A stretch of DNA of 60,950 bases, from contig DAOVFB010000001.1 in NCBI GenBank assembly GCA_030668705.1, positions 1-60,950 on the forward strand, given 5' to 3'. Under the pieces are notes generated by a model that saw only the letters and a program-made list of their open reading frames with translations, made no database searches and was not told the DNA's origin. Origin of the DNA: Candidatus Stahliibacteriota bacterium. GTDB taxonomy: Bacteria; Hydrothermota; UBA3072. Made by a program: the position numbers and the translations under genes. Below are positions 46 to 60,950 of the stretch, in pieces; position 1 is the first letter of the stretch, and every line of letters begins with the position of its first letter.

Positions 46-73
46 CACCCCGCGATAATCGAGGTAGGTATTT

Positions 74-198
74 GGTCTTAGGTTTAGGGTCTTAGTTTTA
101 TTTTTTTACAACTTAACTACTCAACTACTCAACTATTTAACTATTTAACAACGTGTATCTGCGGTTTCGTTTGACTTTGGACATTGGACATTGAACGA
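74..198. repeat. Cluster of short tandem oligomer repeats (microsatellite-like)
   Basis: GGTCTTAG occurs at 74-81 and 88-95. Five consecutive 8-mers T[TC]AAC[TA]A[CT] span 113-152. TGGACAT occurs twice at 178-191. Confidence 0.8.
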
Positions 199-219
199 AC
201 AAAAAATAATTCTTCTCTG

Positions 220-53698: not shown

Positions 53699-54021
53699 TC
53701 GAGCTCCTCTACTTTAATAGCTGTTGCCATAAAGGGACCAATTGCAAGCCGCATCCTTCCTATTTCCACGACTATAGGCCCTCTGAAGGCCTGCTGGGAG
53801 ACTTTTCTAATAATAGTTCCCTCTCTAATTCCCATATCCCCCAATCTTTTTTGTATTCTAAGGCCCCTTCTACTCCCCATATGTCTTGGCATTGCATGTC
53901 TTGACATTCTGTGTGCTCCTCGTCCCATTCCCATATGTCTCTGGGCTCTCTGTGCTCTCCCTCCTGCCTCAATACTTATTACTTTAAGAGCGACATGCTG
54001 CTTTGCCTCTACCAGGTTCAT
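53695..54021 (-). CDS. feoA: FeoA-family protein carrying a ~30-aa Arg/His/Met-rich insertion
   Basis: The FeoA SH3-like core is LKVISIEAGG...GLRIQKRLGDMGIREGTIIRKV...GPIVVEIGRMRLAIG...A..IKVE. It is interrupted by RAQRAQRHMGMGRGAHRMSRHAMPRHMGSRR. Confidence 0.8.
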   Translation of the reverse strand: MNLVEAKQHVALKVISIEAGGRAQRAQRHMGMGRGAHRMSRHAMPRHMGSRRGLRIQKRLGDMGIREGTIIRKVSQQAFRGPIVVEIGRMRLAIGPFMATAIKVEELE

Positions 54022-54419
54022 CTACTTTTCCTTTTTTTATTCTTTGACTTCATAAAGGAAATTATTCTTTCCAGTGTATGATTGGATATATCGTGTTCGA
54101 TTCTGCAGGCTTCTTCATCTGCGGTTTTTTCATCTACTCCTAACCCATTTATTAAAAAATCCCTTATTATGTGGTGTTTCCGTAAGATCTCCCTGCCAAT
54201 CTTTCCTCCACTTTCTGTTAATTCAATGTAACCATATTTTTTATGTTTCAGTAATCCTGCTTCAGTGAGGATATTAACGGCATAATTTACACTTGCAAGT
54301 GAAACATTTAGCTGTTTTGCTATACTTTTTACCCGTGCTACTTTTTCTTCTTTGCATATCTGATATATTGTTTCTAAATAATCTTCCTTACTCTCAGTTA
54401 ACTCCATATTATCTCCCAT
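54018..54419 (-). CDS. DtxR/MntR-family metal-dependent transcriptional repressor (no SH3-like third domain)
   Basis: 133 aa with the wHTH block EDYLETIY...ARVKSIAKQLNVSLASVNYAVNIL and the metal/dimerisation helix HH.IRDFL...E..AC..EH. First gene of the feoAB operon. Confidence 0.88.
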   Translation of the reverse strand: MGDNMELTESKEDYLETIYQICKEEKVARVKSIAKQLNVSLASVNYAVNILTEAGLLKHKKYGYIELTESGGKIGREILRKHHIIRDFLINGLGVDEKTADEEACRIEHDISNHTLERIISFMKSKNKKRKSR

Positions 54420-54422
54420 TAA

Positions 54423-54467
54423 GTTAGACTACTCTAACAATATAAGAGAGATTTATCTTTTTGTCAA
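54423..54467 (-). promoter_or_regulatory. Promoter of dtxR-feoAB with a 16-bp palindromic operator candidate at the transcription start
   Basis: On the minus strand: TTGACA (54467-54462), 17-nt spacer, TATATT (54444-54439), immediately followed by GTTAGAGTAGTCTAAC (54438-54423; arms GTTAGA/TCTAAC), then ATG at 54419. Confidence 0.55.
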
Positions 54468-54469
54468 GA

Positions 54470-54827
54470 GGTAATGACATATGTGTTGCATGGCTGTTAT
54501 TCCAAAGCAATATGTCACATTTAATTACTACGAAAAATGGTACATTTTCATCAGCCATTCGGACTTGCCACACGAAAAGACGCGGTCAATTTCCGAAAGC
54601 CGTGGAAATTGCTGCTCGGCTCTCGCATCGAGCTCTCGTGAGATTAAAATCTCGCGAACCATGCCCGCTCGCCCTCCGAGACGCGCATCGGAGCGGCAAG
54701 TCCTCATGTATTGATTCCTTGAATCTAATTATATCTCTATGAGATAGTTTTTCCTAAATGTGACATCTATTTTTGGGAATAAAGTAGGACATTTATTTTT
54801 GGTAATGACAGTATGTGTTGCAGGGCT
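54470..54827. mobile_element. MITE-like non-coding insert flanked by 26/27-nt direct repeats, with 11-bp inverted repeats and a 143-nt multi-hairpin core
   Basis: Direct repeats are GGTAATGACATATGTGTTGCATGGCT (54470-54495) and GGTAATGACAGTATGTGTTGCAGGGCT (54801-54827). Inverted repeats are ATGTCACATTT (54512-54522) and AAATGTGACAT (54756-54766). The core is 54561-54703, closed by GGACTTGCC/GGCAAGTCC. There is no credible ORF. Confidence 0.55.
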
Positions 54828-54946
54828 TGACAAAACAGATAGATTATATTACTTTTCAGCCTAACGAGACTGGACAAAAGATAAGGGAGGACAAGCGAAG
54901 AAGGAATATATTCTCTTGCGAAAATGAGGAAGAGAAGGAGGTTTTT

Positions 54947-55231
54947 GTGTCGGTTAAGGTAAAATTAACTGTGGTAGGAAAGAAGAAGCAACGGACATAT
55001 AGAATAGTGGCTATTGATTCCAGGAATCCCCGTGATGGAGAATACCTGGAGAAACTGGGTTGGTATAATCCGAGGACAAAAGAGCTGAAAATGGATGAAG
55101 AAGGAATTATGAGATGGCATGGAAAAGGGGCTATATTGTCAGAAAGAGTCAAGTCGTTACTCAAAAGATGGCGAGCAAATAAAAATAAGGAGGTAGAGAA
55201 CGTTGAAGGAACTAATAATATACATAGCTAA
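54947..55231 (+). CDS. rpsP: 30S ribosomal protein S16
   Basis: The GTG at 54947 follows [47 protein letters not shown] is present. The ORF is open from 54815, but the upstream part has no S16 similarity. Confidence 0.93.
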
Positions 55232-60802: not shown

Positions 60803-60950
60803 GACCCCTCGAACCATGCCCGCTCACCCTCCGAGACGCTTTTTTTAACGGTAAGTCCTCATGCATTGATTACTTAAATTTAATGTTATTTCTATGAGAT
60901 ATTAATCCCAAAATGTGACATCTATTTATGATAATAAAGTATGACATTTA
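60803..60950. repeat. Second, 5'-truncated copy of the 54655-54800 repeat
   Basis: GAACCATGCCCGCTCACCCTCCGAGACGC...GGTAAGTCCTCATGCATTGATTACTT...TCTATGAGATA...AAATGTGACATCTATTTATGATAATAAAGTATGACATTTA aligns with 54655-54797 at roughly four of five positions by eye. It runs to the window edge. Confidence 0.75.

Follow-up and report, generated by a model that had tools for sequence, protein, structure and literature searches.

A miniature inverted-repeat transposable element with a conserved structured core between the dtxR and rpsP promoters of a Candidatus Stahliibacteriota bacterium

Miniature inverted-repeat transposable elements (MITEs) are short, non-coding elements that carry terminal inverted repeats, are flanked by a target duplication, and are mobilised in trans. 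Bacterial MITEs with internal structure include the Correia elements of Neisseria, enterobacterial ERIC, pneumococcal RUP and BOX, and Bacillus bcr1; all are foldable and occur as many intergenic copies, often beside promoters. These properties are shared by a 316-nt element found in a Candidatus Stahliibacteriota bacterium (assembly GCA_030668705.1). The window, which is the whole stretch of DNA that was analysed, comprises 60,950 nt of contig DAOVFB010000001.1, and the element lies on its plus strand at 54495-54810, between the divergent promoters of dtxR and rpsP. This segment is a MITE copy, and the element is dispersed in candidate division WOR-3 and related bacteria. It is of a known kind but is unusual in being inserted to the nucleotide beside -35 hexamers with a duplication of 15-17 nt, and in carrying an uncatalogued, strongly covarying core. 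A MITE with promoter-adjacent insertion and a conserved core is, taken as a whole, the likely explanation of the region.

Among insertion sequences (IS), the ISTde1 subgroup of IS1202 comprises elements of 1.3-2 kb that encode a DDE transposase and are found in diverse uncultured phyla (bioRxiv 10.1101/2022.12.17.520857). Its members have direct repeats of 15-17 bp and imperfect inverted repeats of ~25 bp that start with TGT, and no target specificity is reported for the subgroup (bioRxiv 10.1101/2022.12.17.520857). In the sister ISAba32 subgroup, one fixed end lies exactly one duplication length from a XerC/D site (bioRxiv 10.1101/2022.12.17.520857). Repeated use of a single target is documented for ISAba32-group elements.

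The family was recovered with the insert's translated open frame, which served as a degenerate probe in the first copy search and matched nine copies in the WOR-3 metagenome-assembled genome JAGLZA01, as well as a single diverged core in CAYZBF01. When the conserved 5' portion of the core was used as an exact pattern, 10 copies were found on 10 JAGLZA01 contigs and none in any other species representative, and one complete long-core copy was present in a metagenome of the European Nucleotide Archive. The first-pass annotation of the window described a single insert. The window holds at least two copies: a second, 5'-truncated copy occupies 60805-60950 on the plus strand, where the core from GAACCATGCCC on and the right arm run to the window end (nhmmer E = 1.3e-13). 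At 1-31, also on the plus strand, is a fragment that looks like the element's right end (weak match, E = 0.57, read by eye). Both window ends thus lie in copies or fragments of the element, and the contig was evidently broken at these repeats in assembly. Elements of this family sit between divergent promoters and break assemblies, and recognising them improves the genomes of uncultured phyla.

The limits of the window copy were set by BLASTN alignment with another locus (L019:75-388; 90% identity over 317 nt), which places the left limit at 54494/5. Logan contigs from four samples carry flanks that are 98.8% (dtxR side) and 100% (rpsP side) identical to the window. The left contigs end at 54524, and the right contigs start at 54779 in three samples and at 54769 in one. 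The left break and the 54779 starts fall 29-32 nt inside the element, about k-1 = 30 nt from both ends, as expected of a k = 31 assembler at a repeat edge, and the repeat boundaries are thereby supported independently. An invertible promoter switch between the 11-bp inverted repeats within the element was rejected; the Logan contig ends mismatch the inversion junctions and fit the repeat boundaries.

The terminal inverted repeats are imperfect, ~28 nt long (about 25-28), and read TGTTATTCC...GGTAATGACA, with ends TGT...ACA. The left repeat, TGTTATTCCAAAGCAATATGTCACATTTA (54495-54523, plus strand), pairs with TAAATGTGACATCT..TTTTTGGTAATGACA, the latter being the end of the right repeat. The right repeat (54755-54810, plus strand) terminates in GGTAATGACA and contains an internal tandem duplication (54762-54780 / 54788-54806) that is shared by the window copy and some others but is not found in the L018/L028 copy. 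The perfect 11-bp inverted repeats of the first-pass annotation exist, but they are the inner part of these longer terminal repeats, where they sit in a 22-nt inverted pair that is 82% complementary (54502-54523 / 54755-54776). A length of 316 nt (below ~600 bp), terminal inverted repeats, copy-specific duplications, and dispersed copies are defining features of a MITE.

Between the terminal repeats and the core lie AT-rich arms; the core has a GC fraction of 0.5-0.6, compared with about 0.3 in the flanks. The left arm contains a small conserved palindrome, AAAATG-GTA-CATTTT (54534-54548), which has undergone a compensatory change to AGATG/CATCT in two copies. Two JAGLZA01 copies (L037:4141-4429 and L035:892-1177) have the core, together with the inner arms, turned around between the outer terminal repeats, with breakpoints in a palindromic ATGTSACAT motif; this suggests recombination between the arms. 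The element contains no credible open reading frame: reading frames across it are not conserved among copies, which differ by 1- and 2-nt indels and two of which have the core inverted against the arm that bears the ATG, in agreement with its initial description as non-coding. A hidden small protein was also considered and rejected, as a ribosome-binding site is lacking and indels and the core inversion disrupt the frame in other copies.

Seven copies are flanked by unrelated duplications of 15-17 nt, each its own. In the window, the left duplication copy is TATGTGTTGCATGGC (15 nt; 54480-54494, plus strand) and the right copy is GTATGTGTTGCAGGGC (16 nt; 54811-54826, plus strand). The others are AGAACTCCCCACCTC (L033), CCAAAATTTGATAAATC (L028), CAAAGGGGAGGAATAC (L034), ATAGRTAAAAAGGAGG (L037), AGAGCCCGAATYCCAC (L035), and AGTTTAATTTTCYCT (L032). 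A MITE that generates a 15-17-nt duplication is held with high confidence. One observation weighs against a straightforward insertion history at this site: the two window duplications differ at 2 of 16 positions, yet the nearest relative, locus L001, with ~30% intergenic divergence, already has the element here. The window and L001 may share one old insertion or may have received separate hits. Both promoters are present in L001, whose DtxR is 93% identical, and the site there holds a decayed element copy with an internal deletion; in the more distant relatives L002-L006, another gene lies upstream of dtxR. The proposed comparison with relatives for an empty site turned up no clean one.

Direct repeats of 26 and 27 nt had been described at the two promoters as resembling a long target duplication or an attL/attR pair. 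The repeats are real (54470-54495 and 54801-54827, with 1 indel and 1 mismatch between them) and do stem from insertion, but only 15/16 nt of them are duplicated target, and the other 10 nt are the terminus of the element. With element limits of 54495-54810, the right repeat straddles the right end of the element: it consists of the last 10 nt, GGTAATGACA, and the 16-nt duplication, and the left repeat consists of a flank 10-mer and the 15-nt duplication. The 10-mer GGTAATGACA is common to copies with quite different flanks and is the element's own terminus. Its second occurrence, in the left flank of the window (54470-54479, plus strand), is seen in no other aligned element copy and appears in L001 in the same place in the diverged form GGCTAATAATA. 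On the simplest reading, it is probably a relic end of an earlier insertion at the same hot spot.

The 26/27-mers could instead be integrase attL/attR sites, or paired regulator sites that couple the iron-uptake and ribosomal-protein promoters, as might be imagined from their placement, each beside a -35 box, and from their identity at 25 of 27 positions. Every other element copy, however, has a different flanking repeat and hence no common attachment core, and the element's terminus accounts for 10 of the 27 nt. The neighbourhood contains no integrase or recombinase gene, the 27-mer is found nowhere else in the window, and in the sister genome L001 both promoters occur but the repeat does not. 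Both the attachment-site and the paired-operator readings were rejected, being contradicted by the differing junction repeats of the other copies, and little credence of any kind is left to them.

The placement of the element relative to promoters is specific. In five of eight copies, the duplication at the GGTAATGACA end is directly followed by TTGAYA (TTGACA, TTGACT, or TTGATA), a motif with a background of 0.0019 per position (P = 1e-12, or 3e-10 with three offsets allowed). In all five, a gene reading away from the GGTAATGACA end lies within 17-140 nt, so that TTGAYA is read as the -35 box of that gene. In the window, the right duplication copy is abutted by TTGACA, the -35 hexamer of rpsP (54827-54832, plus strand); L001 has the same layout, with TTGACA-17-TATTCT, and the metagenome copy L063 likewise has a duplication followed by TTGACA-17-TAGAAT. 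Insertion would place the GGTAATGACA end one duplication length upstream of TTGAYA, against the -35 box of the gene that reads away. The motif is missing beside three of the eight copies, which counts against a strict rule, and targeting that abuts a -35 box is considered probable.

At L052, the other element end, TGTTATTTTC, lies ~95 nt upstream of the core (50-200, minus strand); 16-17 nt from this end is TGTCAA, which reads on the opposite strand as a -35 hexamer directed away. From this locus, either element end may be able to abut a promoter. Because the 15-17-nt duplication restores the native sequence beside the -35 box, insertion spares the promoter; placement of this kind spares genes as well. 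If true, such insertion of a transposon end next to -35 hexamers with single-nucleotide precision represents a new kind of target selection.

The center of the element is a conserved structured core (54556-54709; minus strand, the probable folding strand) that scores 119 bits against the family covariance model (E = 3.6e-33). The window core folds at -64.8 kcal/mol on the plus strand (z = -5.1) and at -69.5 kcal/mol on the minus strand (z = -4.3), and none of 200 shuffled sequences folded as well. The core is a ~150-nt three-way junction (P1/P1b, P2, P3-P4) that is kept by compensatory evolution. P1 is a long closing helix, in the window formed by GGACTTGCC (54561-54569) and GGCAAGTCC (54695-54703), and is usually extended by GAAAAG/CTTTTC (P1b). 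P2 is a hairpin with the conserved loop CCNGCGAGG. P3 has the form TCTCGG-XY paired with N1N2-[CCT bulge]-CCGAGA, with a fixed 3-nt bulge, and XY covaries with N2N1 (GC/GC, GT/AC, AC/GT, CC/GG, TT/AA, and CT/AG). P4 is a variable hairpin enclosed by P3.

A fixed 26-nt pattern taken from the segment with the highest conservation retrieved 34 metagenome loci. From one of these loci to another, P1, P2, and P4 often differ wholly in sequence yet keep their complementarity. In a MAFFT alignment of 29 cores, 31 of the 42 pairs of the structure proposed here show compensatory change, with 207 compensatory cells against 70 +/- 7 in shuffled alignments (0 of 500 reach the observed count) and 40-62 in slid controls. 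In the model-fitted alignment, which leans toward the structure on which its covariance model was built, 34 of 44 pairs and 336 compensatory cells are counted, against 98 in shuffled and 37-61 in slid controls. The covariance model, for which the same 29 cores were aligned anew and the alignment trimmed, gave 48 matches in 445 kb of loci, including copies missed by the 26-nt pattern. Two features of the sampling tell against the full weight of these counts: the 26-nt segment is invariant because the search required it to be, and many copies are related, so that the cell counts are not independent and overstate the number of separate events. That the structure of the core is conserved is nonetheless held with high confidence, and covariation of the stems among other genomic copies, named beforehand as a check, was found.

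The closing helix and four hairpins of the first-pass annotation, like its direct and 11-bp inverted repeats, were recovered at or within 1 nt of the positions it gave. Of these helices, the family shares the closing helix and hairpins 1 and 3, which are paired in 97-100% of cells. Hairpins 2 and 4 are not general features of the family; they are paired in 72-74% of cells and replace P3 and P1b in a few copies, including the window copy. A pseudoknot between the P2 loop (GCGAG) and CTCGC was rejected, as no covariation speaks in its favour. The initial reading as a compact structured RNA or a DNA-level mobile module was right in part, in that a DNA mobile module here has a compact conserved structure inside it.

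The core module is separate from, and much more widespread than, this MITE. Cores occupy different spacers in syntenic regions (L046 and L072), which indicates that they move, and some have other flanking inverted repeats (L062, TGTTTGGAAAATTTT) or almost none (L046 and L027). The varied or missing flanks make the core a cargo or self-sufficient unit and not a by-product of these arms. Stem lengths and contents also vary: L027 has a stem-extending insertion, and L045 has P4 swapped for an unrelated hairpin. A long-core subfamily (L032:7494-7925, L034:3790-4148, and L045:6044-6450) carries extra 5' and 3' domains around a complete core, which the covariance model covers in full at L045:6169-6324.

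Core neighbours are ordinary metabolic genes. An all-against-all BLASTP comparison of the reading frames in the loci gave no recurrent neighbour gene, only synteny of housekeeping genes. At L027 (2997-3198; also L061 and L069), the core starts 3 nt past the stop codon of a 366-aa reading frame that is HypD-like by eye; the L027 core has no recognisable AT-rich arms, and its stem-extending insertion, of 50 nt, lies in the P2 loop. L027:1800-1890 and L005, in the latter ~300-450 nt upstream of dtxR, share an unrelated repeat, AAGATTGCTTCAC...GTTCGCAATGAC, which in L027 adjoins a short sequence, GACGCGGGCAATTTTG, similar to the core's 5' part.

In line with the first-pass annotation, which could match the motif to no RNA family, Rfam release 15 has no family for it: searches gave no match for the region or the whole window, and none even at E = 10 for the window copy and a long-core copy or at E = 1 for eight diverse copies. 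ARAGORN found no tRNA or tmRNA. A full-text literature search for the conserved 12-mer returned unrelated papers only (mouse and human immunology by title). An exact 29-mer from hairpin 3 had no match in the genome contig collection, an exact 28-mer from the 5' part of the core had none in the metagenome collection, and distant BLAST against phages and plasmids gave chance matches only. A ~150-nt motif with 34 covarying base pairs that is missing from Rfam is a candidate new RNA family, and dozens of copies across many metagenomes make it testable at once.

The strand on which the core folds bears on its function. The minus strand folds ~10 kcal/mol better in 25 of 26 representatives with less than 88% mutual identity (Wilcoxon p = 1.3e-5). 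On this strand, RNAalifold recovers P3 unaided and adds pairs that alternate between U-A and U.G (15:7) and between G-C and G.U (16:4), which are mismatches on the plus strand. The conserved unpaired segments are purine-rich when read on the minus strand. The plus strand, on which the hairpins were originally drawn, does fold, but the opposite strand is probably the right one.

Several observations stand on the other side. The energy advantage of the minus strand is partly due to its G-richness. Wobble pairs are scarce on either strand, at 2-4% of paired cells (42 G.T and 68 A.C on the plus strand against 1555 Watson-Crick cells), which is low for RNA and fits a DNA-level structure. About two-thirds of copies have the plus strand co-oriented with the neighbouring genes, so that a minus-strand RNA would usually be antisense to its surroundings. 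Since base composition explains part of the energy gap and most copies are co-oriented the other way, an RNA made from the minus strand is favoured by only a narrow margin over an even chance.

A candidate promoter element for such an RNA is present. On the minus strand, TATAAT, a -10-like hexamer (54728-54733), precedes the core by ~20 nt, and its position is kept in 10 arm-bearing copies, in which it reads TATAAT, TAGAAT, TAGGAT, TAACAT, TTGAAT, or TATAAA. Its -35 partner is poor (TTAGGA, 18-nt spacing), a further point against a minus-strand transcript. A small RNA would start from this element in the adjoining arm and run leftward on the minus strand, divergent from the targeted promoter, here that of rpsP. 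The best guess is that it would be a trans-acting or protein-binding RNA carried as cargo by the element family.

The core may instead act as folded single-stranded DNA or as a cruciform needed by the transposition or recombination machinery, with the AT-rich arms being secondary. Precedents for folded DNA are the ends of IS200/IS605, REP/RAYT elements, and integron attC sites. Pairing in the core is almost purely Watson-Crick on both strands, some copies are barely more than a core with P1 as the outermost inverted repeat (L046 and L027), and the core occurs with unrelated arms, as in the terminal repeats of L062. Copies are also oriented non-randomly with respect to genes, as expected for replication-strand-specific elements. 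However, alternation with G.U, seen at two pair positions, is confined to one strand, and the three-way junction, long conserved unpaired segments, and fixed 3-nt bulge exceed what is known of single-stranded-DNA transposon ends. The arm-bearing copies have ordinary terminal repeats and 15-17-nt duplications, the signature of a DDE enzyme that works on duplex DNA, and in the loci examined, no HUH or tyrosine recombinase gene lies near the copies. A DNA-level role is considered unlikely, though it is the stronger of the alternatives to a cargo RNA.

A leader origin is less probable still. In this case, the core would be the promoter-proximal leader of the transposase mRNA of a parent IS, or its antisense regulator, left behind after deletion of the transposase gene. 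The core does lie just downstream of the conserved -10-like hexamer on the minus strand, and the arm that holds the hexamer abuts the target motif; this mirrors the ISAba32-group rule that the transposase-proximal left inverted repeat (IRL) abuts the target. A transposase follows none of the 48 covariance-model matches, however, and the nine co-oriented downstream genes are housekeeping-like by eye (including phosphatase, urocanase, RibF, GcvT, and CoaX). The core is also found with several unrelated kinds of flank.

Doubtful to the same degree is that the core forms a new functional RNA class of mobile elements, either a self-cleaving ribozyme or a cofactor in transposition or target choice, spread in different miniature transposons. 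This reading is kept because the core has invariant unpaired segments and a fixed bulge, has no partner gene nearby, and matches no database entry.

For mobilisation of the MITE, duplication length and end sequence point to a DDE enzyme. The element would be non-autonomous and is probably moved in trans by a DDE transposase that makes a 15-17-nt staggered cut, of the kind found in the ISTde1 subgroup of IS1202. Direct repeats of 15-17 bp and 5'-TGT at both inverted repeats, the hallmarks of this subgroup, are present: one end begins TGTTATT and the other TGTCATT, the reverse complement of AATGACA. Weighing against the assignment, no transposase was found beside any copy or in any examined locus (~445 kb in total), and these loci yielded no autonomous element with the same ends; the IS1202 link thus rests on duplication length and end sequence only. 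As judged from these features, an ISTde1-type transposase has about an even chance of being the mobiliser.

The insertion separates two operons. The dtxR-family regulator gene (54018-54419, minus strand) is the first gene of dtxR-feoA-feoB, as identified by translation and by precomputed Pfam matches on the source contig (Fe_dep_repress, FeoA, and FeoB). On the other side, rpsP, which encodes ribosomal protein S16 (54947-55231, plus strand), is the first gene of rpsP-KH-trmD-rplS-rnhB (Pfam Ribosomal_S16, KH, trmD, L19, and RNase HII). The dtxR promoter, TTGACA-17-TATATT (54439-54467, minus strand), matches the consensus at 11 of 12 positions. Between this promoter and the start codon, the dtxR leader contains a palindrome, GTTAGACTACTCTAAC (54423-54438), which is not part of the element and is kept as GTTAGA-NNNN-TCTAAC in six related genomes (L001-L006). 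It is probably an autoregulatory DtxR-type operator.

The divergent -35 regions (54459-54468 and 54826-54835) form a perfect 10-bp inverted repeat, TTTTGTCAAG / CTTGACAAAA. If the element and one duplication are taken out of the window, the two -35 hexamers come to lie 27 bp apart in a compact divergent pair, and the locus before insertion was a symmetric back-to-back promoter pair. The -35 boxes are now 359 bp apart, and both promoters are intact. The local effect is probably modest: the promoters now lie about 330 bp farther from each other, and a possible divergent small-RNA promoter has been gained.

The public S16 gene call is 138 aa long, with a GTG start at 54815, inside the target duplication and promoter. 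The true rpsP start is likely the GTG at 54947, 5 nt past the ribosome-binding site AGAAGGAGG (54933-54941); the S16 ortholog in L001 is 87 aa long. Gene callers may be misled by the element, as this call begins in the right duplication, far upstream of the likely start.

Compared with known systems, the core resembles the families curated in Rfam in its size, multi-helix architecture, and covariation, which are typical of a structured RNA family, and in having a secondary structure kept by compensatory substitutions across diverged members; none of those families matches it. The element as a whole resembles the ISTde1 subgroup in duplication length, TGT ends, imperfect inverted repeats, and occurrence in uncultured phyla, and differs in that ISTde1 elements encode a DDE transposase, whereas none was found with the element described here.

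Its resemblance to the ISAba32 subgroup lies in targeting. In both, the distance from one specific end to a short motif equals exactly one duplication length, the orientation is fixed, and the same site can be hit more than once. The ISAba32 subgroup uses a dif-like motif with a duplication of 5-6 bp, whereas the element described here uses TTGAYA with a duplication of 15-17 bp. If true, the rule by which an element abuts a short motif at one duplication length extends to a second IS1202 subgroup and a second motif. Relative to other bacterial MITEs, whose duplications are 2-9 nt, the element has a longer duplication (15-17 nt) and is set to the nucleotide against a -35-like hexamer. Its center is an autonomous three-way-junction motif, in contrast to folded-back arms, and this motif also occurs without these arms.

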